The notes beneath the pieces were generated by a model that ran no database searches, was not told where the DNA came from, and saw nothing but the letters and a program-made list of their open reading frames with translations. Below are positions 6,625-26,909 of a stretch of 26,909 nt of DNA, in pieces. The DNA is taken from NCBI GenBank assembly GCA_947627635.1, contig CANQWT010000013.1, positions 1 through 26,909 on the forward strand. The letters are read 5' to 3'. Position 1 is the first letter of the stretch, and every line of letters begins with the position of its first letter. Source of the DNA: an uncultured Bacilli bacterium. GTDB lineage: Bacteria > Bacillota_I > Bacilli_A > RF39 > UBA660. The translations under genes were made by a program, and so were the position numbers.

Positions 6625-7182
6625 TTATGCTCTTGATACATACTTACCATCTTTTGTTCCAACAAGAATTTCTTCATCTTGTTCAATAAAGAGTGGCACT
6701 TTAATAATCATACCTGTTTCAAGTTCAGCATCTTTCATAGCAGAAGAGGTTGTATTTCCTTTTACAGCTCCTTCTGTACGAACAACTTTCATAACCACTT
6801 TATCAGGTAAATTCATTCCTAACATTTCCCCTTCAAAGAAAATGATTTCCACTTCTAAGTTTTCTTTTAAGAACTTTGTATCATCACCAATGACACTCTT
6901 ATCAAGTTCAATTTGCTCATAGTCTTGCATGTTCATAAAATAATAAGTATCTCCCATACTATATAAGAACTGCATGGCTTTCTTTGATATATGAGCTGTT
7001 TCTACTTTAACACCAGCATTGAATGTTTTTTCAACAATAGAACCTGTACGTAAATTCTTCATCTTAGCTTTAACAATTGCGGCACCTTTACCAGGTTTTA
7101 CATGTTGGCTTTCTATAATCATATAGATACCACCCTCAAACTGAATTGTTAAACCAGGTTTAAAATCATTAGAATTAACCAT
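6625..7182 (-). CDS. efp: Elongation factor P
   Basis: NDFKPGLTI...HVKPGKGAA..VKAKMKNLRTG is the canonical EF-P signature, including the modified-Lys loop KPGKG. Confidence 0.95.
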   Translation of the reverse strand: MVNSNDFKPGLTIQFEGGIYMIIESQHVKPGKGAAIVKAKMKNLRTGSIVEKTFNAGVKVETAHISKKAMQFLYSMGDTYYFMNMQDYEQIELDKSVIGDDTKFLKENLEVEIIFFEGEMLGMNLPDKVVMKVVRTEGAVKGNTTSSAMKDAELETGMIIKVPLFIEQDEEILVGTKDGKYVSRA

Positions 7183-8931: not shown

Positions 8932-9711
8932 TTATCTTTTTTTCATATAAGGCATCAAATAATCACCATCGTACTGATGTTTTTTCTGAGCAGTAGACAT
9001 TTTTTGTAAAACCATTGTACCTTCTTTAGAAATATGTTTAGGCTTCCATCCTCTTTTTAATTGGAATAAAATAGATGGATAATCATATCCTGTCATTGTT
9101 TCTAGGATTGTTAAGTTTAACATATAAGTATCAACACTTGGTGGAAGTATACCCTTTTTCATAAAGGGTCTTAATTCAGAAGTATTAAGGTCAATAGGAT
9201 AATTTTCAACTTGCATGTTATCCAAATCACAAAAACTAGTTTTTCTATTTCTTGGGTCAATTAAGATATTGGCATTATTGATATCACCATAAACAATTCC
9301 TTGTTCATGAAACTCATTCAATTGTGCTTTAACTTGATTCATAAAGAAAATAAAAAGTCGTGCATCCATATCTAATTGGTATAATGCATAAGCTCTTGGA
9401 TTTCTTGTCATATCATATCCTACAAATTGTCCGTTACAACTAATCGTTTTTAAGATTTTAACATCATTTCGAAAAGCTTCGTTATCGTAAAGTCTTATGA
9501 TTTTGATACATTTATTTTCTCTCATTTGTTCTTGTTCTTCACTTGTTTTGTCTTTGCATCCCATATCTTTTTTGAAGATTTTACGAGCAATAGGACGTCC
9601 ATTTGTATCCTTTAAGAATAAAACATCAGCTTCACTACCACCAGTTTTACTTTTCTTCCTCATTCTCTCTAATTCTTGATAACTAATTTCAATATTTCGT
9701 AATGTTTGCAT
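8932..9711 (-). CDS. Protein-kinase-like fold protein (CotS/aminoglycoside-phosphotransferase-like catalytic loop)
   Basis: GIVYGDINNANILID resembles the catalytic loop HGDLHxxNIL of the kinase-like fold. A downstream FCDLDN sits at the DFG-equivalent position. Confidence 0.45.
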   Translation of the reverse strand: MQTLRNIEISYQELERMRKKSKTGGSEADVLFLKDTNGRPIARKIFKKDMGCKDKTSEEQEQMRENKCIKIIRLYDNEAFRNDVKILKTISCNGQFVGYDMTRNPRAYALYQLDMDARLFIFFMNQVKAQLNEFHEQGIVYGDINNANILIDPRNRKTSFCDLDNMQVENYPIDLNTSELRPFMKKGILPPSVDTYMLNLTILETMTGYDYPSILFQLKRGWKPKHISKEGTMVLQKMSTAQKKHQYDGDYLMPYMKKR

Positions 9712-9815
9712 AATTTTAGTTTTCCCCCTTTTTAAACAGCCATATTATAACACAAAACGAGGAAAAACACAAGAAAAAGCAAACTAACAAAAAAAGGACT
9801 TAAAATAATTAAATC

Positions 9816-10922
9816 CTATTTAAATCCACATGTTGGATTAGAAATTCCATTGATTAGTTTTAAAACTTCTCCTACTAAAAATGGTAGTAGGAATAAAACG
9901 ACTACTGCGATTAAGCGAACAACAAGACGTGACTGAGCTTTTTTCATTGCCTCCTCATCAGAAGTTGCGATGGCTTTAATGAATTCTAACATACTTAAGA
10001 TAATGACTAGAACTGGTCCAATAATCTTAATATAGTTAAGAGCTGTTTGTATGAGCCATCCAAAGGATTCTTTTGTAAAGTTTCCATTTCCATCGGTTTT
10101 TCCAAAAATACCTTCACAGCCAATTCCTGAATTTAGTCCATCTAAATCAACATTGGAGTTTTCAGTATCTCTATTTTCTGGTAGAGTACGATCTGTATCT
10201 GCATCTGTCCCACTTTCTACAATTTTAATCCTATAATGAGCAAGATTAGAGGTATAATCTGAAACTTTATCAGCATAAATATAAGCAGGACAAGTAAATG
10301 CATTATCTTTATAAAATAAAGAAGTTGGATTATTTTCCATATCACAAACTGTTGAAACAGTAGAACTAACATCACAATCAAAAGAAGCTGTTTGATTATC
10401 TTTCTTAGTTACTTCTATAGTAGTATCTTGAGTAGGCTCACTTATATATTTACAGGAAGTGTCAGTAGAACTTTTTAGTTTATACTGTTGTCTTGAGTTT
10501 GCATTACTAGAAGTTGATTGATCTGTATCACCTTTTGTTCCATTTACATTTTCAATACAATTACCTTTTCCCTTATCTTTTTCACATTCATCTTTAGATT
10601 GATATACAATATAATCAGCATTCCAAGCTGTTACAAATACACTAATAGTTGGACAATTACCACTACTTAAACTAATACCATTTTTATCATAAAAAGTAAC
10701 TTTCTTAGTAAGAGTTCCCTGATTTGCAAAACCTGAACCCTTAGTTAAAACATTTTCATAGTTATCTGTTTCTAATACAATATTATTTTTTTCACTACCA
10801 GTACTATAAGTACAAACTGTTTTAGCGTAAACTTTAGTATAACTAGCAAAAAGTAGGACAAAAAAGAATAAAACATAAAACAGGTATTTCATTTGATTTT
10901 GTTTCTTTTTCATGATTATCAC
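9816..10922 (-). CDS. Secreted Cys-rich protein with a C-terminal two-helix membrane module
   Basis: Lys-rich N-terminus followed by a hydrophobic signal (YLFYVLFFFVLLFASYTKVYA). The ectodomain carries many Cys residues. The C-terminal IKIIGPVLVIILS..IKAIATSDEE..KKA..VVLFLLPFLV hairpin is homologous to the N-terminal modules of the ORFs at 17226 and 18258. Confidence 0.6.
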   Translation of the reverse strand: MIIMKKKQNQMKYLFYVLFFFVLLFASYTKVYAKTVCTYSTGSEKNNIVLETDNYENVLTKGSGFANQGTLTKKVTFYDKNGISLSSGNCPTISVFVTAWNADYIVYQSKDECEKDKGKGNCIENVNGTKGDTDQSTSSNANSRQQYKLKSSTDTSCKYISEPTQDTTIEVTKKDNQTASFDCDVSSTVSTVCDMENNPTSLFYKDNAFTCPAYIYADKVSDYTSNLAHYRIKIVESGTDADTDRTLPENRDTENSNVDLDGLNSGIGCEGIFGKTDGNGNFTKESFGWLIQTALNYIKIIGPVLVIILSMLEFIKAIATSDEEAMKKAQSRLVVRLIAVVVLFLLPFLVGEVLKLINGISNPTCGFK

Positions 10923-11063
10923 TGCTTTCTTTTCTTTAAGATATCCACTATAAGATTAACCCATATAAACTTTTTTTTCAAGAAGTAAGTTTTAAAACTA
11001 TAAACTCAATATTTACTATTTCAAAATATTTTTTTATTTATTCTATCATTATATATTTATAAG

Positions 11064-11096
11064 CCAAAGAAAAAACAGGATATTTTTATTTAATTT
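11064..11096 (-). terminator. Possible weak rho-independent terminator after the lectin-like gene
   Basis: AACAGG...CCTGTT stem followed by a T-run on the minus strand. The loop is long, so the call is weak. Confidence 0.2.
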
Positions 11097-11123
11097 TATA
11101 CCTGTTTTAATTATTTTATCAAA

Positions 11124-13073
11124 TTAGTTAGCATTTGGGGTGAGGACGATGCGAAAAGTAAGCCATGCAGTCATTCGACCATTATCACCACTGAATGCGA
11201 AAACTCCTGCATTTTGACCATTACTGGGGTAACCACCTCGAATCATCCATGGACTATCCGTATTCACCATCCATGTGAGATCACTATACCACTCTGCTCC
11301 TTCTCCTAAGGAATGTCCTTTACAGGAGTTTCCGTTACATGCTGTTTCTGTTAATATTGATGTGTATTCATCAAAGTACTTAGTAGCTGGCCATTCTCTT
11401 GCATTTTCTGTAAATTCGCTTTCGTCAGTTAATTTTCCTGAATAGCCCGAATTTCTTTCTTGTGCATTTCCACTCCGTTTTTCTAGCACTCCCATGGTGT
11501 ATTCCCATGCTCCTCCATTGATATCATAGATTCCCGTAATGTTTCCTGTACTTGAAGCTCCTGCTCCAGTATAACCCTTGCCTTCTCCTCTATCTACTAG
11601 GTCATCATACGCTGCTCCTTCTTCAGTGGAGCTTAAGGCTGATCCTTGTCCACTTGAACGTCCTGTCTTATAACCACTATAATTATTCATGAATACTTCT
11701 TTATTAGCTCCTGTATATAAAGAATTACCATATTTTCCATACTTGCTTTGAGTTAAGTATGATATCAAAGCCCACTCTGTGTTCTTTGAGGCATGACTAT
11801 CATATGTTTCTTGATTAAATCCGTAAATGTTTCCTACTTTCGTTATTCCCATAGATACTATTTCTAATGTTGACACTCGAATATTTCTCCATGAATATAC
11901 ATTTGGCTTAATTTGAACAGTTAAATTTTCTAGATCACAACCATTATTTACATCATTATTAGTGGTAGAACAGTTTTCAATGTTACTACTTTCAAACTTT
12001 CCTATCCATACTCCTGATAAGTTTTCATCACCAAAAGTAAATCCTGGTGGTGTAAACCATCCTTTGACACTTTGTCCTTTTTTGTACTGTGCTGTTCCAT
12101 CATCTTTTGTAGAGGTAGAGATAAATTTCACATCGATTTCTCCTGGATTTGCTGCACTTTCTCCACCCTTTCCATAATAATTTGTTCCATCTTCTGATTT
12201 AATTGTATAACTATATCTTGGTATCCATACAAACATCTGCAAGATATCATCCATATTGATTTTTGCTCCAGCTTTGGCATTCTTGTATGTTTCTCTTGTT
12301 TCATTTGTTACTGTTACTGCATTTGCCCAATTTTGTTTATCATAATCATACCACTTGTTATTCACATCTGCTTTAATCCAACTATATCCATTATAAACAA
12401 CAGGTATCATGTTATCTGAAAGCACTGGAGGATTAGGCTCTTGTTGGTTTTCATATCCTGCAAGCTGTTGTGTTGCATCTACTTTTAACTTTCCAAAGAA
12501 TACTTTTCCTTGAGCATCATTTCCTGCATCATAATTGAGCCAAACACGAAGTTCATAATCGATTTTATTTGCTTCACCTTTTAAAATTGTTCCAGCATCA
12601 ATAATACGATTATGAGGAAGAGTTTCTACTTCTTCTTTTCCATTTGCAATGAGTTGATAACGAATATCTTTTTCATCTAAATAACTACAATCAGGACATT
12701 CTTGTTGCTTTTCTTCATTGTCAATTAAAGAAAGCTGATAATCCAAATTCATCATACTTTCATTATCCAAAGTAAAGGTATAAGAAACACCTTTCTTACC
12801 CTCTTCATCAACAATAGGAACTGCAGGAACCTCAGAACCTAAATCAATTCCATCATTTGTCTCATCTAAAATAAGATTTAATTTCTTCGCATTAAGTCCA
12901 ACATTTTTTGTACCTTTTACTGATGTTCTTAACCAAGCATAACTAAGACTAAAAAAGAGAAGTAAGCAAATTATTAAAAGGATAATTCCACTAATAATCA
13001 TGGTCTTATTTTTTCTTTTTTTATTTCTTATATCCTCCATATATAAACACCCTATCTTTCTTGTAATAATCAT
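11124..13073 (-). CDS. Membrane-anchored surface protein with C-terminal FGE-sulfatase/C-type-lectin-like (DUF323-like) domain
   Basis: N-terminal TM (MIISGIILLIICLLLFF), then roughly 250 aa of beta-rich sequence. The C-terminal part carries FGE-fold hallmarks: NTEWALISYL ~ PTEAEWEYAAR, GGAWEYT ~ GNVWEWT, PWMIRGG ~ RVLRGGSW, and a terminal FRIVL ~ GFR. It is paralogous to the ORF at 25560. The true start could be the internal Met at 13040. Confidence 0.75.
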   Translation of the reverse strand: MIITRKIGCLYMEDIRNKKRKNKTMIISGIILLIICLLLFFSLSYAWLRTSVKGTKNVGLNAKKLNLILDETNDGIDLGSEVPAVPIVDEEGKKGVSYTFTLDNESMMNLDYQLSLIDNEEKQQECPDCSYLDEKDIRYQLIANGKEEVETLPHNRIIDAGTILKGEANKIDYELRVWLNYDAGNDAQGKVFFGKLKVDATQQLAGYENQQEPNPPVLSDNMIPVVYNGYSWIKADVNNKWYDYDKQNWANAVTVTNETRETYKNAKAGAKINMDDILQMFVWIPRYSYTIKSEDGTNYYGKGGESAANPGEIDVKFISTSTKDDGTAQYKKGQSVKGWFTPPGFTFGDENLSGVWIGKFESSNIENCSTTNNDVNNGCDLENLTVQIKPNVYSWRNIRVSTLEIVSMGITKVGNIYGFNQETYDSHASKNTEWALISYLTQSKYGKYGNSLYTGANKEVFMNNYSGYKTGRSSGQGSALSSTEEGAAYDDLVDRGEGKGYTGAGASSTGNITGIYDINGGAWEYTMGVLEKRSGNAQERNSGYSGKLTDESEFTENAREWPATKYFDEYTSILTETACNGNSCKGHSLGEGAEWYSDLTWMVNTDSPWMIRGGYPSNGQNAGVFAFSGDNGRMTAWLTFRIVLTPNAN

Positions 13074-13192
13074 AGCAAAGATAAGGTTTTCACTTGTTTA
13101 ATATTCCAAATTGTCATATGTAATATATTGTCAAGAAAAGTGAAGAATTTACACTCTATTGATTGGGTACTAATGTAGTCTTTTTTACTCCT

Positions 13193-13909
13193 TCATTCAA
13201 TATCAAAAACTTGTCCATCATCTGGAACGACTACATTTGAATACTCTAATTTTTTAAAAGCTTTTCTTGTTTCATCTTCCAAATGACTTACAACAAATAT
13301 ACAATTTGGGTATTTTTGACATAAATACGTAATATTATCAATGCCCATATGTGACTTTGTTCCCTTTAAAAGCATTCCATCACAAAATAAATAATCACAC
13401 TGACTAGCCATTTTTTCTACTGTTTCACAAAGACTTGTATCTCCTGTAAAACCTACAACTTTATTATTTTGATGAAATAAGTATCCATAAGCAGGAGCCA
13501 TTCTACCATGGTCTACTAAAACTTTTTCAATTTTGTAGGAAGCGATTTGAAAAGAATTTTGTAACTGATATTTTAAATCTAGCTCTTTAAATATATCTTT
13601 ACAAGAATTTGGAAAAGCAAGTAAAGTTATCTTTTTAATTTTACGAATTCCTTCCTTACTACAATAAACTGTTACTTTATTCTTTTCTGATTTAGATTTT
13701 AATAAATAGAAAAATGGCATATCAAAATAATGGTCACCATGAAAATGTGTTAGTAAAACATGTTCGATTTCAATAGGATTTAATTTTTGACGAAACAGAT
13801 TTTTACACATTCCATTTGGAACATCTACCAAAATATTATGATCAATTTTATAAGATGCACTATTATATGCATTCCACATACTTCCACTACCAACAACTTG
13901 TACTTTCAT
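13193..13909 (-). CDS. MBL-fold metallo-hydrolase
   Basis: The THFHGDH motif (HxHxDH) sits in a beta-lactamase-fold context. An RBS is present upstream. Confidence 0.7.
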   Translation of the reverse strand: MKVQVVGSGSMWNAYNSASYKIDHNILVDVPNGMCKNLFRQKLNPIEIEHVLLTHFHGDHYFDMPFFYLLKSKSEKNKVTVYCSKEGIRKIKKITLLAFPNSCKDIFKELDLKYQLQNSFQIASYKIEKVLVDHGRMAPAYGYLFHQNNKVVGFTGDTSLCETVEKMASQCDYLFCDGMLLKGTKSHMGIDNITYLCQKYPNCIFVVSHLEDETRKAFKKLEYSNVVVPDDGQVFDIE

Positions 13910-13955
13910 TCATATCATCCTCTTTTGTTTTATTAAATCATATTTTCTAAAAAAT

Positions 13956-14206
13956 GAAAATAAAAAGCAAGATTTTCGTAGAACTACTCATCTTACTTTC
14001 CTTTTGTTTTAAATAGACTTTACAAAATAAACTTTTCTTTTGTAATCCGATACTTGGCGGAACGAAACATTGTTATCTACATTACCATACCAATTGCTGA
14101 ATGCGAAAACACCTGTGTTCGCACCATTTTCAGCTCGTCCACCACGCTCTAACCATGGATACGTCGTATTCACCATATTATAGTTATCACCGTTTGTCGT
14201 CTATTC
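13956..14206. repeat. Cassette repeat copy 1: 5' boundary box + orphan C-terminal lectin-tip coding segment + conserved 3' flank
   Basis: The roughly 70-nt block GAAAATAAAAAGCAAGATTTTCGTAGAACTACTCATCTTACTTTCCTTTTGTT(T/A)TAAATAGACTTTACA is near-identical to 14998-15068. The shared box TATCACCGT.T.TCGTCTATTC marks the other end. Confidence 0.8.
14009..14200 (-). pseudogene. Orphan 3' gene fragment (last ~55 codons of FGE/lectin-like family)
   Basis: Minus-strand translation gives ...TTNGDNYNMVNTTYPWLERGGRAENGANTGVFAFSNWYGNVDNNVSFRQVSDYK... It aligns with the C-termini of the ORFs at 11124 and 25560. An in-frame TAG sits immediately 5', and no start codon is present. Confidence 0.7.
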
Positions 14207-14274
14207 TATTTTAGTTTAACACAAGTTTTCTTTTAAAATTTGATTTGTCAAAATGATGTAATATTAAAAAAAAT

Positions 14275-14943
14275 TTAATCTAAGTTCATACCATCAATAC
14301 TTGTATCATAAATCCATTGCTTTAAATCAGTATAATCTCCTGTCTCATAGAATTTTATTAACTTTTCAAAGAAAGTTGGTTGATTTTCTTGAGAAATAGT
14401 AATTATTCCACATCCATTATCAATCATGATTTTATTAGCAAACAACATAGCAACCCTTTTATTACCATCAATAAACATTTGTCTTCTCATAATCCACAGC
14501 ATAATTTCAATAGCTATTTCTGTTTTTGTTTTTTCAACTTGATTGAACAGTTCTTGAAGTTCTTCTTTAATTTGACTTTCTATTGGAAAATTAGGTTTCC
14601 AAGATGTTCCTCCAATATTTACTGGTGTTGTTCTTATCCTTCCTAGATTTTGGTCTAAAACTAATTTATCACAAGTAAGTTTATGTAAATGACATAATAC
14701 CTTAAAATCATCTTCTATTTCAGTATTTTCAAGAATAAACTGCCATGAATATTTTAAATTATTGATAGCGATAATTTTATCAACAGTTAATCCATTGACA
14801 ATACCCCCATCATAAATAGCTTGGGTTTCAGGATATGTAACACCAATTCCTTCCAAATTAGCACTTTTCCAAATATAATCTACAATATTTCTCTTTGCAA
14901 CAAATACATTTTGCTCTCGTGTTAGATTAAATTTGTCTTTCAT
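14275..14943 (-). CDS. Fic/Doc family protein (non-canonical motif QMFIDGNKR)
   Basis: The N-terminal SANLEGIGVT..ETQAIYDG matches the Fic S/T-x-x-IEGN region. The core WIMRRQMFIDGNKRVAMLF matches the Doc-type HxFxDGNKR motif, with Gln in place of the catalytic His. A GAGGTG RBS is present. Confidence 0.7.
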   Translation of the reverse strand: MKDKFNLTREQNVFVAKRNIVDYIWKSANLEGIGVTYPETQAIYDGGIVNGLTVDKIIAINNLKYSWQFILENTEIEDDFKVLCHLHKLTCDKLVLDQNLGRIRTTPVNIGGTSWKPNFPIESQIKEELQELFNQVEKTKTEIAIEIMLWIMRRQMFIDGNKRVAMLFANKIMIDNGCGIITISQENQPTFFEKLIKFYETGDYTDLKQWIYDTSIDGMNLD

Positions 14944-14997
14944 AAATAAATCACCTCATATAAAGCTCTTTTCTAACTAAAATTATATCATAATTTT

Positions 14998-15247
14998 GAA
15001 AATAAAAAGCAAGATTTTCGTAGAACTACTCATCTTACTTTCCTTTTGTTATAAATAGACTTTACAGAATACTATTTTTATCTGTAATCCAACTCTGGCG
15101 GAACGAAATCCATTCAGTAAACCGACCATTATCGTTGCTGAATGTGAAAACACCTGCGTTTGCCCCATTATCATGTTTACCACTACGGACAAACCAAGGG
15201 TTCGTCGTATTTACCATCCAATTTCTATCACCGTATCTCGTCTATTC
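14998..15247. repeat. Cassette repeat copy 2 (same organisation as copy 1)
   Basis: The 3' flank is more than 95% identical to copy 1 over about 70 nt. The 5' box TATCACCGTATCTCGTCTATTC is shared. The coding core is diverged. Confidence 0.8.
15062..15241 (-). pseudogene. Orphan 3' gene fragment (last ~55 codons of FGE/lectin-like family)
   Basis: Minus-strand translation gives ...TRYGDRNWMVNTTNPWFVRSGKHDNGANAGVFTFSNDNGRFTEWISFRQSWITDKNSIL*. An in-frame TAG sits at the 5' edge. It begins only 8 nt after the rubrerythrin stop. Confidence 0.7.
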
Positions 15248-15252
15248 CACTT

Positions 15253-15798
15253 TTATAAATAATTTTCTGCTTTTACTTCCATGTAACTTTTTGGATGTTT
15301 ACAAACAGGACAAACTTCTAATGCATCTTTTCCTACATAAACATGTCCACAATTTCTACAAATCCAAATTTTATCCCCATCTTTGTGGAAAACTTTATCA
15401 TCTTTAATATTCTTTAAAAGTGCTAAATATCTTTCTTCATGTTCTTTTTCAATTTTTCCAACTTCTTCAAAAAGATAAGCAATACGGCTAAATCCTTCTT
15501 CACGAGCTACTTCTGCGAATTCTTTATACATTTCTGTCCATTCGTAGTTTTCTCCGTTTGCAGCATCTTCTAAGTTTACCAAAGTTTCAGGTACATCTCC
15601 ACCATGAAGTTCTTTAAACCATAGTTTAGCATGTTCCTTTTCGTTGTTTGCTGTTTCTTCAAAAATTGCCGCAATTTGTTCATAACCATCTTTCTTAGCT
15701 TTTGAAGCATAATAAGTATACTTATTTCTTGCTTGGCTTTCTCCTGCGAATGCAGTCATTAAATTTTGTTCTGTTTTTGTTCCTTTTAAATTTTCCAT
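15253..15798 (-). CDS. rbr: Rubrerythrin
   Basis: An N-terminal ferritin-like diiron domain (E..EH..E..EH spacing) is followed by a C-terminal rubredoxin-like CxxC...CxxC (CRNCG...CPVCKHP). Confidence 0.92.
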
Positions 15799-15814
15799 TT
15801 TTTTCCTTCCTTTC

Positions 15815-17119
15815 TTAAATAACTTCTATATCAGAAGAATCCTCTTCGATTATAGACTTTTTAGTAAAATAGTCCCTGTGTAAATAGGCTTTGGCAAGTG
15901 GACTATTCGGATACATAAAATACATATCATACACTTGCTTTACATCCATATTTTCGTGACTACATCTTATTCTAGCACGTCTATCAAGCTTCGACAAGTT
16001 ATTCATTCTTTTTTTTGTCTGTTCACTTTGTAAATTGATTGTCCCAAGAGGCTGTCCTCCTCCACCAACACAACCATTTTCACAATTCATGACTTCAACA
16101 AAATCATAAAGTACTTCACCATTCTCTAAAGCTTCTAAGATAGGTCCTACTTCTTTCATTCCCCAAACGGAGGCGACCTTTAAAGTTTTTCTATAAGTTT
16201 TAACCTCAAGTACTCGCTTACTTTCTGTTTCTTCAAGGGTCTTAATTTTAAAAGGCTCACCCATTAAGAAAGAAAGTGTTCGAAGAACAGCTTCACTTAC
16301 TCCACCCTTTCTTCCAAAAATAGTCGCAGCTCCACTTCCTTCACTTAATAAAGCATCAAAATTTCTTTCTTTTTCTTCTTTTAAATTCACATTTTCTTCC
16401 TTTAATAAGAGAAGTAGTTCACTCGTTGTGATACAAATATCCATTCCTGGAACATCAATAATTTCTTGTTTTTTCGCTGTACAAGGAGCAACAACTACAT
16501 GAATAACATCTTCTTTTTTCAAATTTTCTTTTTCTAAAAAATAACTATTCAAAATAGCCCCTTGCATTCCAATTGGGCTTTTGGCTGTCGATAAATAACA
16601 TGTATACTGTGGATAAAATTTTGTCACATAAGAAACCCAAGCAGGACAACAAGAAGTAAAAAGTGGTCGATGTTCTCCATCCATAATAATTCCTAAAAAC
16701 TCTGTTGCTTCTTCCATGACTGTTAAATCTGCCCCAAAAGTAACATCAAAAACATAATCAAAGCCAATTCGTTTTAAAGCTCCTATTAACTGAGGCAAAT
16801 TGTTTTCATCCTCATCATAACCAAAAGCTTCTCTTAATGAAACACGAACTGCAGGTGCAAGTGAAATGGTCACAACTTTATTCGTGTCGTGCAAATAATC
16901 AAGGACTTTTTTATATTGATACTTAGGAGTAAGTGCCCCAACAGGACAAGATAAAATACATTGTCCACAACCAAGACAAGTCTTTTCATAAATATCTCTA
17001 TCTATCTTTTCTTTTTCAATACAAGTCTTTTTACAAATTCCACATTCAATACATCTTTCAATAATTCGGTTGATGCATTTATTTTCCTTGTCAATATAGA
17101 CTGCTTTCTTTTGCCCCAT
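15815..17119 (-). CDS. [FeFe]-hydrogenase catalytic subunit (HydA-like)
   Basis: N-terminal ferredoxin-like Cys clusters (CIECGIC...[13 protein letters not shown]). H-cluster motifs are present: L1 TSCCPAW, L2 [10 protein letters not shown]3 [14 protein letters not shown]. Confidence 0.85.
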
Positions 17120-17174
17120 ATTTATTCACCTTACTTTACTCTATTATAACTTTTTTTCTTGATTTAGAGAAGTG

Positions 17175-17211
17175 ATTTCTTGTTTTTTAACTACTAAATT
17201 TATGTTATAAT
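17175..17211 (+). promoter_or_regulatory. Putative promoter with extended -10 (TGtTATAAT) for the plus-strand membrane-enzyme cluster
   Basis: TGTTATAAT sits at 17203-17211, with a TTG-containing -35-like sequence about 20 nt upstream. The region is divergent from the hydrogenase gene. Confidence 0.35.
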
Positions 17212-17225
17212 GAAAAAAATGAGAA

Positions 17226-18242
17226 ATGAGTGATATTATGTTCAATATTTTAGAAACAACAGCCTGTACTGATTATGTCTTAGGCTATTACTTATCGATT
17301 GTCAAAACAATTCTTACCGTTTTACAAATTGCTGCCCCTATTGTGTTTATAATTTCTCTAGTTATTTCGTTTATCAAAATTACTGCAACAGGAGATGAAA
17401 ACAAAAAGATTGCAAAAGGAATTGTCAAGAAAATTATCGCAGTAATCATATTTTTCTTACTACCTTGGATGGTCAACTTAGTACTTGGACTGATTGAAGT
17501 TGAAAATGTAGATACTGGAGCAAGATATACCCTTGGAAGTTGTTGGGAAAATGCAAGTGAATTAAGAAAAGAAGTAGACAATACTCATAATGATGGTGTC
17601 AATAAAGGTAATCCAACTGATTTAAAACCGGATAATTCATCTTTAGAAAATATCGAAGCAGATGATGATACTGACACCGATACCGATACGAGTAGTAATA
17701 GTGGAAATAGTAGTAGCAGTAGTGGTAATAGTAGTTCTGGTACTACTTCTAATCAAACCGAAACACCTACAAAATTGATTTTTATAGGTGACTCTAGAAC
17801 AGTAGGAATGCATAATGCTGTTGGTGGAAAGGATACTTGGAGTTGTAAATCAGGAGAAGGACTTGCTTGGATGAAATCAACTGGAGTTCCACAAATTGAA
17901 GATAAAATTGACAATAAAACTGGTATTATTATTCTAATGGGTGTCAATGATTTATATAATGCTGATAAATATGTAACATATATCAATGAACAAGCTAAAA
18001 AATGGGTTGCTAAGGGTGCTAAAGTTTACTTTAACTCTGTCATGCCTTGTAAAGGAAGCTATGCAAATAGAAATGTTAGTATTCAAGATTTCAACAAAAA
18101 GTTAAAAGTCAAACTCAAAAATGTAAAATACATTGATAGTTATTCCTATATGACTAAACAAGGATTTGATTCACCTGATGGACTTCATTATAATGCTGCA
18201 ACCTATAAAAAAGTATATAAATATATTAAAAATCGTTTATAA
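17226..18242 (+). CDS. Membrane-anchored SGNH/GDSL hydrolase with N-terminal two-helix module and D/T/S-rich linker
   Basis: Module LQIAAPIVFIISLVISFIKITATGDENKKIA...IIFFLLPWMV is followed by a low-complexity linker, DDDTDTDTDTSSNSGNSSSSSGNSSSGTT. SGNH blocks follow: I FIGDSRT, III GVNDL, V DGLHYN. The alternative start is the second Met, at 17238. Confidence 0.8.
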   Translation: MSDIMFNILETTACTDYVLGYYLSIVKTILTVLQIAAPIVFIISLVISFIKITATGDENKKIAKGIVKKIIAVIIFFLLPWMVNLVLGLIEVENVDTGARYTLGSCWENASELRKEVDNTHNDGVNKGNPTDLKPDNSSLENIEADDDTDTDTDTSSNSGNSSSSSGNSSSGTTSNQTETPTKLIFIGDSRTVGMHNAVGGKDTWSCKSGEGLAWMKSTGVPQIEDKIDNKTGIIILMGVNDLYNADKYVTYINEQAKKWVAKGAKVYFNSVMPCKGSYANRNVSIQDFNKKLKVKLKNVKYIDSYSYMTKQGFDSPDGLHYNAATYKKVYKYIKNRL

Positions 18243-18257
18243 AAAGGAAGTGATTAC

Positions 18258-19346
18258 ATGCTTAGTCTTTTAGATTTAACTGAATGTAAAGATTTTGTCT
18301 TAGGCTATTTTCTAGCAACAATTAAATCCATTCTTGACTTACTTCAAATTGTTGCTCCTATTGTTTTAATTATTTCTTTGATTATCTCTTTTTCTAAACT
18401 TGTAATTAACCCTGATAATGATAAGAAAGAAATTCATGGAATGATGATTCGAATTGTTGGAATTTTCTTCTTTTTCTTTCTTCCTTGGGTAGTAGAACTT
18501 GTCTTAAATGTCTTCGTCATTAACAGTAAAGATGACCAATCACTTTACTTATTAGGAAGCTGTTATAAATATTCTAAAGAAATAAGAGAAGTTTTAGATA
18601 GTTCTCCTAGTAAAGGTGTTGGAAATAATATGACACCAGTTCAGTTAAAGACAACCATTGGTGAAATTACTGTTGAGAAAGCCATAGAATCAATGGAATC
18701 AGATTCAAGTAAAGGTATGGGTGCTGTTAAAAAAGTCACTATCAAATACAATCAAAAAGATCCTGAAGGACGCTGTGGTAAAGGAAAAAATGACTATTGT
18801 TCTGCCATTGCAACTGTCAAATATGAAAAAGGAACTGTCAAGTACTATATGGGATATCAATATAATTCTGGACTTCTTGATGGATCTTGTAGAGCACATG
18901 CCCTAACCTCAGCGATTAACGCTATTAAAAATACAAAGATGTCTACCCTAGATTTACAAAATTACATGTATAAGCTAACTCCTAATAGTGGTGTCTTAGT
19001 CGGAAATAAAATTGATAAAGCGATTAGTCATTATGGAATAAAAGCAACTGTTTTCCATAGCGAGCTAACACAAGAAAAAGCAGCAAACATTATTAAGGAA
19101 GCTGTTAAAAATGGACAACCTGTTATGGTCTTTGTTCAACATTCAAAATGTCCTGACCTTGCAGGAACTCATCATGCTTATCTGATTTTAGATATCGATG
19201 ATGATGGCCATGTTGTTATGATAGATAGTTGTAACTATCCTAGAAATGCAAGTTACAAAAAAAGAACACCAAGTGAACTTGCAAAATGTTTAAGTAAAGA
19301 TGATATCGCTGATAGTTATTATCGTTTGATTTTATTCGAATTTTAA
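18258..19346 (+). CDS. Membrane-anchored papain-superfamily cysteine peptidase (C39-like domain) with the same N-terminal module
   Basis: The module LQIVAPIVLIISLIISFSKLV..D.DKKEI...FFFFFLPWVV is homologous to that of the ORF at 17226. The C-terminal domain has LDGSCRAHALTSAINAI (Cys motif) and GTHHAYLILDIDDDGHVVMIDS (His block). An AAAGGAAG RBS is present. Confidence 0.7.
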   Translation: MLSLLDLTECKDFVLGYFLATIKSILDLLQIVAPIVLIISLIISFSKLVINPDNDKKEIHGMMIRIVGIFFFFFLPWVVELVLNVFVINSKDDQSLYLLGSCYKYSKEIREVLDSSPSKGVGNNMTPVQLKTTIGEITVEKAIESMESDSSKGMGAVKKVTIKYNQKDPEGRCGKGKNDYCSAIATVKYEKGTVKYYMGYQYNSGLLDGSCRAHALTSAINAIKNTKMSTLDLQNYMYKLTPNSGVLVGNKIDKAISHYGIKATVFHSELTQEKAANIIKEAVKNGQPVMVFVQHSKCPDLAGTHHAYLILDIDDDGHVVMIDSCNYPRNASYKKRTPSELAKCLSKDDIADSYYRLILFEF

Positions 19347-19361
19347 AAGGGTGTGTGTTTT

Positions 19362-19970
19362 ATGAATAAAAAATACTTTATTATTGTAGGAGCAATTATT
19401 GGAGTACTCTTGATTATTTCTTTTATTAACCATAGGCGAGTTCAAAATCAAGATGGAAATTATACCAAAGAAACTTATGAAGATGCTCCTCGTGTCAATA
19501 ACACCAGTGATTTGACAAAGTTATCCAATTCAATTATCTATTTTCAAAATAGTGAAAATTACTTATTACAAATTGCAGTAGTTCTTGCCTCTTCTATTGA
19601 TAGGAGTAAAAGTAAAATTGACTTTCAAACCTTACCTAGTGATGAGATTTTCAAATATACCAATTATCTTTTAAGTGATGGTGAAAAAGTTTGTTACTCC
19701 AGAAAATTTTTATTAGAAGAAGCCAATAATCTATTCCATCGACGAATTTCTACAATTCCTACTAATGATGAAATTTATCAGATTTATGATACAAGTACAG
19801 TCTGTTTCGGTTCAACCTTTCTAAATGATATTCCCCTTCAAAATCAACAAATCAATACTCTACCTAACAGCGATATAGAAATTATTCTTTCTGAAGAGCA
19901 AACTAGTTTAAAAGTACTTTTCTCACAAAACTATGGAAACTATTATATTAAAGAAGTGACTATTTATTAA
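19362..19970 (+). CDS. Single-pass membrane protein of unknown function
   Basis: N-terminal TM (YFIIVGAIIGVLLIISFI). An AAAGGGTG RBS precedes the ATG at 19362. The track ORF starts 3 codons earlier, at 19353. It sits immediately downstream of the peptidase gene. Confidence 0.55.
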   Translation: MNKKYFIIVGAIIGVLLIISFINHRRVQNQDGNYTKETYEDAPRVNNTSDLTKLSNSIIYFQNSENYLLQIAVVLASSIDRSKSKIDFQTLPSDEIFKYTNYLLSDGEKVCYSRKFLLEEANNLFHRRISTIPTNDEIYQIYDTSTVCFGSTFLNDIPLQNQQINTLPNSDIEIILSEEQTSLKVLFSQNYGNYYIKEVTIY

Positions 19971-20005
19971 GCACTTCTTTTTCTTTTTGGCATAAACTAC
20001 AACAG

Positions 20006-20239
20006 GTGATTTTCGTGAAAAAAAGAAAAAGACATTCCCATTCCTTTTGCTGTCGTTGTAACATGTGTAAACAAAAACGTTTGTTAAGTCCTATCTATTT
20101 ATCAATTATCTTTTTCTTAATTGCCATTACCATGTATCAAGCTTTTCTACTCATCTTTCTAACCACTAAAATTCATGCAATTTTACTCTTTATCGAGTTA
20201 TTTTTCTTCTTGTTTCTGACATCGCTTATCCTCTTCTAA
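20006..20239 (+). CDS. Small hydrophobic protein (possible two-TM peptide); start uncertain
   Basis: A basic, Cys-containing N-terminus is followed by two hydrophobic stretches. It overlaps the 3' end of the convergent ysxE-like gene. The call is weak. Confidence 0.3.
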   Translation: MIFVKKRKRHSHSFCCRCNMCKQKRLLSPIYLSIIFFLIAITMYQAFLLIFLTTKIHAILLFIELFFFLFLTSLILF

Positions 20240-21073
20240 TAAAAAGAGAAAACACTTCTTAAGTTTATTCAGATTTCTTGATAAAAAAACTGTACCTTGA
20301 TAAGTTGATAGAACTTCTAATTTTGGAGGAAGTGCTAGTAAAAAGGAAAATAAAAGTTGTTCTTCTTTGGTAAAAGGATAAGTCTTTTGATAAATTGAAT
20401 AAAGAGATGAAATATCCAGTTCTAGACAATGTGTCTGAATAAAATAAACCAAATCAGTAACAGGACTTCCATAATCCATTTGACTTAAGCTAAGAAGACA
20501 TGGCATTTTTCCATCTAAAAAATGAGAAAGTTCAAAACGATGATGAACCAAAACTTTACGAATATGCTTTTTTAAAGTAACTGCTTGATACCACTTTTCT
20601 AGTTTTTCTTTGGCATAAGATAAAGAGGAAAAAATCAATGAGAGATTTCTTTGAAAAAGATAGATGGAAGAAGATGGATAAACTTCTTTCAAAAAGCAAT
20701 TTTCTAAGTTTTCATAGTAACAAAACAAATCTGTAAGTTCTTTACTTTTAGCTTCATAAAATTCTTTTACTTCATCTAAAATAATCTCTTGATAAAATGT
20801 AGTCTTATTTTGTAAAAGCGATAATACATGAATCATGTCTATCGCTTTTTCGTCGATTTGATAATGTTTTTCAGGAAGATATAAAAAAATTTCTTCTTGT
20901 TCTAATCGTTCGATAGGTTTTAAGAAATGATGAAACCCTCTATCTTCTAACATTTCATAAATATCTTCATTCTTAAATTTTCTTTTTGGCTTTATAAAAT
21001 AGGCATTATCATCTGTTACTATAATACGATTATTTTTGACTAACGTTATTTTCTTAATGTGCCTACTATTCAT
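20198..21073 (-). CDS. CotS/YsxE-family spore-coat kinase-like protein
   Basis: VLVHHRFELSHFLDG...MDYGSPVTDLVYF resembles the CotS-family HGDLHHGNIL...ID...D pattern. It sits directly downstream of a spoVID-like gene, as ysxE does in Bacillus. Confidence 0.5.
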   Translation of the reverse strand: MNSRHIKKITLVKNNRIIVTDDNAYFIKPKRKFKNEDIYEMLEDRGFHHFLKPIERLEQEEIFLYLPEKHYQIDEKAIDMIHVLSLLQNKTTFYQEIILDEVKEFYEAKSKELTDLFCYYENLENCFLKEVYPSSSIYLFQRNLSLIFSSLSYAKEKLEKWYQAVTLKKHIRKVLVHHRFELSHFLDGKMPCLLSLSQMDYGSPVTDLVYFIQTHCLELDISSLYSIYQKTYPFTKEEQLLFSFLLALPPKLEVLSTYQGTVFLSRNLNKLKKCFLFLLEEDKRCQKQEEK

Positions 21074-21839
21074 TTGAAATCACTGTAGGAAGAATTAACT
21101 TGCTCCCTACTTTCAAATCATCTAATTGATTATACTCACTAATTTCTTCTTTGGTTACTCCATAACGATTTAAAACCTCATCTAAAGTGTCATTTTCTCT
21201 TAAAATATAAATGGAATAAGTAGAAAATGTTTCTTCAGTATCCTTAAAGGCTGAAAAGATAGAATGCATCACTTCTTTGGATGTGTCTTCTTGTGAAATG
21301 GTCTTTAAAGTTTCTTCCTTGGTTTTTTCTTCAGTTTTTTCTTTGATTACATCTTCCTTAAATAATTCTACTTCTTTCTGTGTTTCTTCTTTATCTAAAA
21401 CGAAATCTTTTTGGAAAGCAAAATGACTATCTTCCATAGGTTCTTCTTTTTCAGTTTCTATTTTTTCAATGATTTTCTCTTGTTCTTTTAAAACTTCTTC
21501 TTCCTCTAAAATATCTATTTTTTCTCTTCCCATCACAGCTAAATCGATATGTACAAGTAAAGCTTCTTCGTCTAGAATTTCATAAGTAAAGTGGTCAATT
21601 TCCACTTCACGGTCATCATCTAAAGGCGTTGTTAAAACAATATCCACAGGTACTTTATAAGAAAAATCTAAAGAAGCTTGGGTATCTTTTGTAATTTTAT
21701 AAGTTCCACTAACAATAAAATCCCCTTGAATAGAGCTATCATCTTGAAAAGCTAAAGTATGTTCCAAAGCAATACTTTCTACTTCTCCGATCATGGTTTT
21801 AAATGGAATTTCTTTTTCAAATGAAATAATTTGTTTCAT
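21066..21839 (-). CDS. SpoVID-like spore-coat morphogenetic protein (acidic, C-terminal LysM)
   Basis: The N-terminal domain pattern (F..PVDI....D..ID.F.YE.LD...L...DLAV.G) resembles the SpoVID N-domain. A highly acidic middle region follows. The C-terminus is a LysM domain (YILRENDTLDEVLNRYGVTKEEISEYNQLDDLKVGSKLILP). Confidence 0.6.
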   Translation of the reverse strand: MKQIISFEKEIPFKTMIGEVESIALEHTLAFQDDSSIQGDFIVSGTYKITKDTQASLDFSYKVPVDIVLTTPLDDDREVEIDHFTYEILDEEALLVHIDLAVMGREKIDILEEEEVLKEQEKIIEKIETEKEEPMEDSHFAFQKDFVLDKEETQKEVELFKEDVIKEKTEEKTKEETLKTISQEDTSKEVMHSIFSAFKDTEETFSTYSIYILRENDTLDEVLNRYGVTKEEISEYNQLDDLKVGSKLILPTVISNE

Positions 21840-25559: not shown

Positions 25560-26909
25560 TTATTGAGGTGTAAGAACCTGACGGAAAGAGCCATTTCCAT
25601 CTACATTACCATTCCATCCGTAGAATGTGAAAACTCCTGCGTATGTTTCATCCCCAGCTCGACCTCCACGATAGAACCATGGGCGTGTTGTACTCAATGT
25701 CCAAGGAGCATCACCATACCACCCTGCGACTTCGCCTAAGGCATGTCCCTTGCATGGATTTCCGTTACAGGCAGTTGCTATTGATATTGACGTGTAAACA
25801 TCATAGTATTTTTCATCGGGCCAGCCTCGTTCACTATCATAATTGCTTTCATCTGCGAGGAGTCCTGGATATCCTGAGTTCGCATTTGCTGTATTACCAC
25901 TTCGTTTCTCTAATACACCCATTGTATATTCCCAAGTAGCTCCATTTATATCATAAATTCCTGTGATGTTTCCTGTTGAACTTGCTCCGGCTCCTGCGTA
26001 GCCCTGACCATTTCCTCGGTCTACCATCACATCATATTGATTTGCACATGTTGTTGAACTACTTGCTGTTCCTTGTCCACTTGAACATCCTGTCATATAC
26101 CAATTGTAGTTATTTATAAATACTTGTTTATTTTCTCCGGTATATAATGGGTTACCATACTTTCCATATTTACTTTGTGTAAGGTAACTGATTAGTGCCC
26201 ACTCACTATTTTTTGAAGCATGACTATCATAGGTACTTTGATCAAAGCCATATATATTTTCTTCTTTTGTTATTCCCATAGACACTAACTCTAACGTTGA
26301 TATTCGAATTCCTCTCCATGAAGTAATATTAGGTTTGATTGCTACTAAGTTATCTGTATCCACATCTCCTGGACTTGTTCCATCAATTGATCCTGTCTCA
26401 AACTTACCTACCCATATCCCTGATAGGTTCTTCTCTCCAAACTTAAATCCTGGTGGAGTGTACCATCCACTTGGTGTATTTGAATTTGTATATTGGGCAC
26501 TTCCTTCATCTGTAGTAGAACTATTGATAAACTTCACGTCTATCTCTCCTGGTAAGGCTTGACTTGGTTCATCACTTCTTCCTTCCTCTTTCTTTCCATA
26601 GTAATGTGTTCCATCTTCACTCTTTATGGTGTAACTGTATCTCGGTATCCATACCCACATTTGGAGAATATCATCCATCTTTACTTCTTCTCCTGCTTCG
26701 GCATTCTTGTATGTCTCTCTACTTTCATTTGTTACTGTTACTGCATTCGCCCATTCTTGTTTATCGTAGTTATAATAGTCACTACTCTTCTTTACCCATG
26801 TCTTTCCATTGTATACGACTGGTATCATATTGTCACTTAGAACTGGAGGGTTTGCTCCACTCTTATCTTTTTCTATATAAGGTAATAAGTACTTACTATT
26901 ACTTGGAAA
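25560..26909 (-). CDS. FGE-sulfatase/C-type-lectin-like domain surface protein, paralog 2 (5'-partial; runs off window end)
   Basis: Manual translation upstream of the track start continues without a stop, ...FPSNSKYLLPYIEKDKSGANPPVLSDNMIPVVYNG, matching NPPVLSDNMIPVVYNG in paralog 1. The C-terminus is PWFYRGGRAGDETYAGVFTFYGWNGNVDGNGSFRQVLTPQ. Confidence 0.8.
   Translation of the reverse strand, partial: FPSNSKYLLPYIEKDKSGANPPVLSDNMIPVVYNGKTWVKKSSDYYNYDKQEWANAVTVTNESRETYKNAEAGEEVKMDDILQMWVWIPRYSYTIKSEDGTHYYGKKEEGRSDEPSQALPGEIDVKFINSSTTDEGSAQYTNSNTPSGWYTPPGFKFGEKNLSGIWVGKFETGSIDGTSPGDVDTDNLVAIKPNITSWRGIRISTLELVSMGITKEENIYGFDQSTYDSHASKNSEWALISYLTQSKYGKYGNPLYTGENKQVFINNYNWYMTGCSSGQGTASSSTTCANQYDVMVDRGNGQGYAGAGASSTGNITGIYDINGATWEYTMGVLEKRSGNTANANSGYPGLLADESNYDSERGWPDEKYYDVYTSISIATACNGNPCKGHALGEVAGWYGDAPWTLSTTRPWFYRGGRAGDETYAGVFTFYGWNGNVDGNGSFRQVLTPQ

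Follow-up and report, generated by a model that had tools for sequence, protein, structure and literature searches.

How does the C-terminal tip of a predicted surface protein vary in an uncultured Bacilli bacterium whose contig holds further copies of that tip? The question arises from a stretch of DNA of 26,909 bp (the window in what follows), a complete contig (CANQWT010000013.1) of a metagenome-assembled genome (MAG) with ~31% G+C. It contains a gene for this protein (gene1), a second paralogue (gene2), and two short cassettes (cassA and cassB) that carry the tip sequence. In a diversity-generating retroelement (DGR), a complex of reverse transcriptase (RT) and Avd reverse-transcribes the RNA of a template repeat (TR) and misreads template adenines, after which the cDNA replaces a variable region (VR) in the target gene. 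The initial annotation had likened the tip to a DGR VR and had noted neither RT, Avd, nor TR in the window. It had proposed that either the cassettes convert the tip independently of any DGR or the RT lies outside the window. Our analysis makes it likely, though well short of certain, that the tip of this protein family is a DGR VR and that the cassettes are its stand-alone TR RNA genes. Within that explanation, we rather doubt that gene1 itself is being diversified at present.

A structural model of gene1 was built by AlphaFold on a family alignment of 119 sequences (pLDDT 82.7, pTM 0.82). When PDB was searched with this model using Foldseek, the DGR variable protein TaqVP of Thermus aquaticus was at rank 1 (E 1e-8, probability 1.0) and Mtd at rank 6, and the top structural matches were DGR variable proteins and proteins resembling formylglycine-generating enzyme (FGE). 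The model thus agrees with the FGE/C-type-lectin fold that had been predicted, and the variable residues lie in C-terminal loops, as they do in DGR variable proteins. The earlier name 'FGE-sulfatase' held for the fold but not for the sequence: gene1 matched no Pfam family at E 0.01 or better, the FGE-sulfatase family PF03781 included, no PDB sequence at E 10 or better by phmmer, and no useful NCBIfam family. FGE likeness therefore appears to hold at the fold level only, and nothing pointed to a catalytic role like that of the FGE (PF03781) family. TaqVP (5vf4), TvpA (2y3c), and Mtd (1yu0) are 13–21% identical to the gene1 domain and give no match at the sequence level; unlike theirs, the gene1 domain is much larger (~430 residues) and follows an anchor and a TasA-like sandwich.

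The hydrophobic segment at residues ~24–46 may be a signal anchor or a signal peptide, and the membrane topology suggested by it is a prediction from the amino acid sequence. In the AlphaFold model, residues 6–44 form one long helix of low confidence. The database version of the protein (P0001) has 638 residues and begins at Met12. Considering the model as a whole, the product of gene1 is probably a cell-surface protein that consists of an N-terminal anchor, a TasA-like sandwich, and an FGE/C-type-lectin domain which would bind a ligand with variable loops at its extreme end.

Homologs of gene1 are numerous (at least 1985), and none of them has a Pfam domain for the gene1 region. A scan of species-representative genomes gave 548 confirmed matches, and among those returned the closest was 55% identical to gene1. 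The best 80 of the 548 matches were kept for follow-up; nearly all of them come from MAGs assigned to uncultured gut Bacilli, 'Tenericutes', or Candidatus Onthousia, with rabbit and chicken among the source animals. Stretches of DNA from these relatives are given L numbers below, and 79 of them were searched. Across 119 family members, the two tip loops (residues 615–622 and 628–638) had a mean entropy of 3.0 bits, compared with ~1.1 bits in the rest of the C-terminal domain and 0.6–0.7 bits at the RGG and FRIVL anchors, in agreement with the earlier view that the variation is concentrated in loops. In addition, the targets adjacent to avd-RT loci with adenine-only TR/VR pairs are family members 41–47% identical to gene1. 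Gene1 thus belongs to a large family of paralogous DGR-type variable proteins, which is greatly expanded in uncultured, low-G+C gut Bacilli and whose C-terminal tip is the VR of a DGR. The gene1 tip has 46% G+C compared with ~31% for the whole gene, having retained, like the gene2 tip, the elevated G+C of TR-derived sequence.

A six-frame search of the window for the RGG...GVFxF...FR tip recovered the motifs quoted in the initial annotation and exactly four copies of the tip, all on the minus strand: those of gene1 and gene2, which are coding, and those of cassA and cassB, which are not (table 1). Homology between cassettes and genes spans ~139 nt, from GGTGAT (WYGD motif) to TTCCGC (SFR motif). 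As had been noted before, the differences extend beyond adenines; pairwise mismatch among the four copies is 32–46% and affects all four bases. Gene2 is not short at its N-terminus; its reading frame is open up to the contig end at 26909, by which it is cut. Two origins of the cassettes were rejected. A shufflon or other invertible cassettes were ruled out, as all four copies are direct repeats and a scan of 13 window ORFs (open reading frames) found no recombinase. A 3′-end duplication by an integrative element was ruled out because the cassettes lie upstream of the full gene, not downstream, and share precise boundaries.

Loop-centered variation and differences at all four bases are what would be expected if the tips were exposed loops under diversifying selection in ordinary diverging paralogues, the cassettes being random pseudogene remnants. 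The structure of the cassettes argues strongly otherwise. Each consists of a leader, a TR of ~136 nt, the G+C-rich end TCGTTCCGCC, and two covarying hairpins. The leader has the form AATAGACGA.A.ACGGTGAT and is preceded by a TAGAAT/TGGAAT box; the first hairpin downstream of the TR reads GAYTACAAA...TTTGTARAGTC, and the second is a terminator-like stem followed by a T-run. Seven distinct units, cassA and cassB among them, align from leader to terminator, including the TR, its TCGTTCCGC end, and both hairpins. In this comparison, seven base pairs of the two hairpins were changed on both sides and were still paired. Both the boundaries and the flanking modules of the cassettes match those of TR units in six other loci, and one unit, cassA, is syntenic in another species, where a TR unit follows rubrerythrin (L016). 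With the family demonstrably linked to DGRs as well, plain paralogue divergence is the least probable explanation that we considered, with hardly any weight left to it.

The same type of unit follows family genes in L048 and L084; cassB and the L084 unit share an identical leader, despite adjacent proteins with no more than ~58% identity. More generally, both leader and hairpins have been kept between species in which identity of the flanking proteins is no higher than 48–58%. Within the window, the ~94-nt downstream flanks of cassA and cassB are 91% identical and their TR bodies 68%. The shared leader and this contrast between flank and body speak for selection on the units. Units of this type also lie directly upstream of avd-RT in L089 (MAG CANQEE01), where the order is target-TR-avd-RT, and in L090/L091, where it is HisKA-TR-avd-RT-RecG. 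Because of this full-length homology, from leader through hairpins, to units beside avd-RT in relatives, cassA and cassB are best read as stand-alone TR RNA genes, presumably transcribed, and not as silent gene fragments; it follows that the window does contain TRs, which the initial annotation had not recognized.

A covariance model (R1) was made of the 3′ part of the TR units; other marks of such units are the leader and TGTARAGTCTAT motifs. R1 scored 107.6 bits for cassA and 112.9 bits for cassB, and weakly matched the corresponding position after many TRs of the tandem arrays described below (20.6–30.2 bits, E 0.013–1). A search of the whole window against Rfam returned no family for the cassette RNA elements, and when metagenomes were scanned for the leader motif AATAGRCGANANACGGTGAT, the four matches that came up were attributable to chance, with no TR unit among them. 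Hairpin 2 of the TR units (AAGAAGATGAGTA...) was also observed after some full-length family genes (L006:2615-2714 and L020:1502-1583), which would fit an origin of TR units in the duplication of a gene 3′ end plus its terminator.

Traces of DGR activity were found in the clade of the window. The TR of L089 was compared with a remote VR of the same MAG, in L049: the 3′ ends are identical, and the 5′ 56 nt contain three A-to-G changes and no change at any other base. In L016, the TR and the neighboring VR differ, from RGG onward, at adenines and also at non-adenine positions, the latter all being third-position C>T or G>A changes, which suggests an old retrohoming event followed by drift. In this clade, TR units occur singly, beside avd-RT or scattered beside family genes, whereas a sister clade has tandem arrays between target and avd-RT. 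Downstream of the avd-RT of L089 (L089:2706-6307) are genes for one protein with a BclA_C domain, one with an ADP-ribosylating-toxin domain, and an AAA/TniB-like ATPase; this DGR may lie on a mobile or toxin-associated island.

The arrays of the sister clade supply the strictest evidence on how the tip changes. A tip-peptide search of the 79 loci found 100 gene-attached and 41 orphan tips (98 and 56 after refined classification), and the orphan tips are arranged downstream of a family gene in tandem arrays, one unit every 320–360 bp. Each array unit begins with GCGCGGCGG, continues with 75–95 variable nt rich in AAY codons and with TCGTTCCGCCTCGTGAT, and ends in a conserved structured spacer of ~220 nt; the TRs are 91–109 nt long. 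The arrays carry from 3 to at least 25 units, the largest (L051) being cut off by the limit of the flank. In seven loci (L022, L025, L028, L030, L032, L038, and L046), the target gene is followed by the TR array, bAvd, and RT in that order, and L051 is an eighth array locus. The bAvd of array loci (PF22296, E 9.5e-24) immediately follows the last unit, and the RT (RVT_1, E 1.7e-17) has IGNYTSQ and YMDD motifs.

Five VRs each match, at the nucleotide level, exactly one unit of the same length in their own array. The mismatches fall on 16 of 26 unit adenines in L022, 15 of 31 in L028, 11 of 25 in L030, 17 of 27 in L038, and 5 of 26 in L051; at the other unit positions no mismatch was found (0/68, 0/63, 0/69, 0/70, and 0/71, respectively). 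The tip had been proposed as a VR scaffold, and its homologs here are indeed the targets of bAvd/RT DGRs with strictly adenine-specific TR-to-VR differences. The position of the matching unit within the array differs from genome to genome, and the units are therefore functional alternative templates. The VR of L046 (L046:5555-5651) is a mosaic, with its 3′ two-thirds from one TR and its 5′ loop from another (units at 7027 and 8023), adenine-only differences in both parts, and a junction at the conserved GCAGGnGTTTTC core. Such a mosaic would be the expected outcome of 3′-anchored, partially extended retrohoming. All DGR-linked VRs of the array clade carry a G+C-rich, TR-like end (CGTTCCGCCTCGTGATGAG) followed by a TAGTCCGTAAGGACT hairpin with a GTAA loop. 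TR-matching VR ends with the hairpin usually occur in one paralogue per genome, and most paralogues lack them.

The first unit of the array is unusual in seven of the eight loci (L022, L025, L030, L032, L038, L046, and L051; L028 has none of this kind). It is adenine-poor, T-rich, and 83–88 nt long, contains in-frame stop codons, and has a conserved core (TTCTTTnTTGCTCTAT) and a VR-like 3′ flank (GATGAGCGTGACTA). In two of the eight genomes, the target VR is a copy of this stop-containing unit, which truncates the protein (table 1). The L032 unit and its VR copy differ by one A-to-G change and one T-run length. An assembly artifact as the source of a VR equal to this 'null' unit was ruled out, both because of these differences and because an independent MAG has the same state. 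A stop-containing VR may be a DGR-written OFF or reset state. In a complete long-read chromosome (OZ006970.1), a target with DGR-type VR ends and hairpin is followed by an adenine-poor first unit (L045:11669-12234). Neither Asn-rich TRs nor avd-RT were found within 10 kb of it, so that the rest of this DGR is either elsewhere or lost.

The RNA elements of the array units were also examined. The TR 5′ end (GCGCGGCGG) is complementary to the TR 3′ end (CCGCCTCG), for example in L022:13693-13971 (alignment A6). In a consensus fold of the spacer between two TRs, the TR 3′ end pairs with the 5′ end of the next unit, and these pairs are all invariant; the same pairing within a single unit would close the TR into a loop. 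The spacers themselves contain three or four conserved hairpins with compensatory changes at 15 pairs.

Are the cassettes then silent donors that are copied into the gene by homologous recombination, without any RT, as in Neisseria pilE/pilS or Borrelia vlsE? They are promoterless-looking partial copies on the same strand as the genes, in one relative the VR combines two array units as a mosaic, and in two relatives it reproduces one unit almost exactly, all of which fits such conversion. However, every informative donor-to-VR comparison in the relatives is adenine-only with avd-RT adjacent, the signature of retrohoming, and the near-exact copy in L032 still differs by an A-to-G change and a T-run length. 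In the window, cassettes and genes share no identical tract, and the conserved noncoding leader and hairpin modules would be needless for a recombination donor. Since the cassettes are homologous over their full length to avd-RT-adjacent TR units, the DGR-independent conversion proposed earlier is very improbable; the other alternative offered then, an RT outside the window, fits the evidence from the family.

A number of observations in the window itself weigh against the DGR explanation. In line with what had been reported, neither RT nor Avd was found: phmmer with the RT and Avd of the family gave no match among all stop-to-stop ORFs of the window of at least 50 aa, and Pfam/NCBIfam scans of 13 window ORFs (8932-21839 and 25560-26828) showed no RT. 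A search among the four copies for a TR/VR pair that differs at TR adenines alone, a test proposed in the initial annotation, gave none. CassA and gene1 differ at 16 of 37 adenines and 26 of 97 other positions, and cassB and gene2 at 15 of 33 and 21 of 88. The corresponding odds ratios for adenine bias between cassette and gene (2.1–2.7) are no stronger than the gene-to-gene or cassette-to-cassette baselines (1.65–2.2). The tips of gene1 and gene2 end in TTTCGCATCGTCCTC and TTCCGTCAGGTTCTT, respectively, without the cassette end TCGTTCCGCCA (also written TCGTTCCGCC), and are not followed by the GTAA-loop hairpin; downstream of them are only A/T-rich terminators, in gene1 a single hairpin of this kind. 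A protein-level search of 119 family proteins found no partner VR for cassA or cassB. The cassettes hold 7–8 Asn (AAY) codons, fewer than clearly active TRs. Their transcription is suggested by a -10-like box alone; a scan for sigma-70 promoters and terminators around them was not above shuffled expectation, with a simple terminator rule that misses hairpins containing G-U pairs.

Given the absence of an adenine-only pair and the different VR ends, neither cassA nor cassB is the current source of the gene1 and gene2 tips. The two genes either draw on other templates located elsewhere in the genome or have ceased to be diversified. Taken alone, the window has the TR with the flanking RNA elements of the lineage's DGR and has no RT, Avd, adenine-only TR/VR pair, or TR-matching VR end with hairpin; the relatives have all the defining features of a DGR. 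We therefore classify the window as a set of DGR target-family genes accompanied by orphan TR units and not as a complete DGR.

The same observations are compatible with a fossil system, in which the genome lost RT and Avd, gene1 and gene2 are former targets that have become ordinary paralogues, and the cassettes are remnants of templates whose retention may be due solely to the role of their hairpins as terminators of the upstream rubrerythrin and Fic genes. The lack of RT and Avd on the contig, the high non-adenine divergence between cassettes and VRs (24–27%), the lost match of the VR 3′ ends, the relative paucity of AAY codons, and the drift of neighboring VRs from the TR in L016 and L089 are all in keeping with it. 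In the relatives, moreover, most paralogues of each genome also lack a TR-matching end, so that non-diversified paralogues are the norm. On the other hand, leader and hairpins have been kept, with compensatory pair changes, between species with quite diverged flanking proteins, and the flanks of cassA and cassB are far more alike than their bodies. An intact avd-RT with the same type of unit is present in the same clade. The contig covers no more than 26.9 kb of a genome that is probably larger than 1 Mb, and targets and TRs remote from the RT have been documented, as have TR and RT on different strands (PMC5758913). Thus, the lost VR end match, the drift, and the fewer AAY codons favor a fossil, and the cross-species conservation and covariation of leader and hairpins together with the contrast between flank and body favor dispersed templates used in trans by an off-contig RT. 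We regard the fossil as a serious but rather unlikely alternative, and we infer transcription of cassA and cassB and their use in trans, as well as acquisition of the gene1 tip diversity through the DGR.

If dispersed templates are indeed at work, an RT-Avd encoded off this 26.9-kb contig would use cassA and cassB in trans. One RT-Avd would serve many independently transcribed template RNA genes, arranged in tandem arrays (up to 25 or more) or scattered over the chromosome, and the two cassettes would be trans-acting members of this template library. Template choice and partial retrohoming would alter loop length and non-adenine scaffold residues, and adenine mutagenesis would then act on top of template choice. 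The adenine-poor, stop-containing template would serve as a reversible OFF or reset cassette. That the lineage runs a DGR in this 'library' form, complete with trans-acting cassA/cassB and the OFF or reset template, is a tentative proposal to which we give slightly less than an even chance.

Table 1. Features of the window and of the array loci in relatives (window positions where no locus is named).
Feature	Position	Strand	Details
gene1	11124..13073	-	649-aa ORF, from the ORF list; probable start Met12 at 13040
gene1, N-terminal hydrophobic segment	12936..13004	-	Residues ~24-46, after a Lys/Arg-rich stretch; seen in the sequence
gene1, beta-sandwich domain resembling TasA/camelysin	12459..12926	-	Residues ~50-205
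gene1, FGE-like/C-type-lectin-fold domain	11127..12431	-	Residues ~215-649
gene1, VR-homologous tip	11145..11285	-	Residues 597-643; from alignment with cassettes and entropy profile
gene1, hypervariable tip loops	11208-11231; 11160-11192	-	Residues 615-622; residues 628-638
cassB TR unit	13955..14215	-	Leader AATAGACGACAAAC ~14192-14205; TR 14056-14191; hairpin 1 ~14016-14048; hairpin 2 and T-run ~13963-13999
cassA TR unit	14997..15250	-	Leader AATAGACGAGATAC ~15233-15246; TR 15097-15232, ending TCGTTCCGCC; hairpin 1 ~15058-15090; hairpin 2 and T-run ~15005-15041
gene2, second family paralogue	25560..26909	-	Tip ~25575-25715, 3′ end TTCCGTCAGGTTCTT; from ORF, translation, and alignment
Metallo-beta-lactamase-fold gene	13193-13909	-	Between cassB and gene1
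Fic/DOC-family gene	14275-14943	-	Between cassA and cassB
Gene with T4SS-pilin-like module	9816-10922	-	Fused to Cys-rich secreted domain
Gene with T4SS-pilin-like module	17226-18242	+	Fused to GDSL lipase domain
Gene with T4SS-pilin-like module	18258-19346	+	Fused to C39-like peptidase domain
TR arrays of relatives	L032:5194-8407; L051:3413-12052; L022:12923-15113		Between single target gene and bAvd-RT; also in L025, L028, L030, L038, L046
Stop-containing unit and VR copy	L032:5194-5278 and VR L032:4542-4627
Stop-containing unit and VR copy	L025:12914-12999 and VR L025:11756-11841

The remaining genes of the window include housekeeping and sporulation genes of Bacillota type (Obg, EF-P, trigger factor, Lon, S16, YsxE-like, and SpoVID-like). 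In the syntenic L016, a single TR unit lies directly between rubrerythrin and the family gene, and the block of the Fic/DOC-family gene, cassB, and the metallo-beta-lactamase-fold gene therefore looks like an insertion or duplication. A two-helix module resembling pilins of conjugative type IV secretion systems (T4SS) occurs in three window genes, on the basis of weak matches to PF18895 and to NCBIfam models of integrative and conjugative elements from Mycoplasma. In MAG CANQOD01, which has at least 24 family paralogues and ~30% G+C, runs of 8–9 G (e.g., AATAAAACTGGGGGGGGGTAG) recur between tandem family paralogues (L005, L007, L010, L013, L016, and L052), just downstream of one family gene or upstream of the next. 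They are candidate tracts for slipped-strand phase variation, and no 8–9-G runs of this type occur in the window.

Compared with canonical DGRs (mtd-avd-TR-brt of Bordetella phage BPP-1, and those of Legionella and Treponema), the relatives likewise encode bAvd and a DGR-type RT with the I/LGxxxSQ motif. The VR occupies the last ~45 codons of a C-type-lectin-fold protein, the TR is AAY-rich, the differences are adenine-only, TR and VR share a G+C-rich 3′ end, and a small GNRA-type (GTAA) hairpin follows the VR. Unlike canonical DGRs, the relatives have 3 to at least 25 TR units, each with its own leader and structured spacer, in tandem or as single units away from the RT, and the window has TR units and family genes without RT, Avd, or an adenine-only pair. 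DGRs carrying at least two TRs have been reported (Stenotrophomonas sp.) and also have more than one template per RT, an architecture that was mentioned only in passing. With silent-cassette variation (Neisseria pilE/pilS, Borrelia vlsE/vls, and Mycoplasma genitalium MgPar), the system shares a library of non-expressed partial copies near the gene and segmental, mosaic replacement; it differs in that transfer in the relatives is via adenine-mutagenic reverse transcription with an adjacent avd-RT and not via RecA-type gene conversion.

A literature search of incomplete coverage found no description of tandem arrays of 3–25 templates serving one VR, of VRs matching different units between genomes, of two-template mosaic VRs, of an adenine-poor, stop-containing template, or of TR units standing alone at a distance from the RT. 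The multi-template library may thus be a new architectural variant of DGRs, present in the window in a dispersed and possibly inactive form; given that coverage, the claim of novelty is provisional.

DGRs are usually described as having one template and one or few VRs, with diversity limited to template adenines at fixed length. The array family adds a combinatorial layer, in which alternative templates of differing length (91–109 nt) and with different fixed residues are available to a single target. Multi-template use enlarges the sequence space that the retroelement can reach, considering that a DGR with a single TR can never change loop length or the non-adenine scaffold, and the copying of a stop-containing template into the target could act as an on/off switch. 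Such DGRs make the boundary with silent-cassette antigenic variation less sharp. Programs that detect DGRs automatically probably miss or miscount these loci if they assume one TR per RT; one published pipeline set genomes with at least two TRs aside. Since a stand-alone TR RNA gene can be located at a great distance from any RT, a locus should not be denied DGR status just because no RT is found nearby. For the organisms themselves, these results mark a very large, unannotated family of surface proteins as the main diversified interface of poorly known animal-gut Bacilli.

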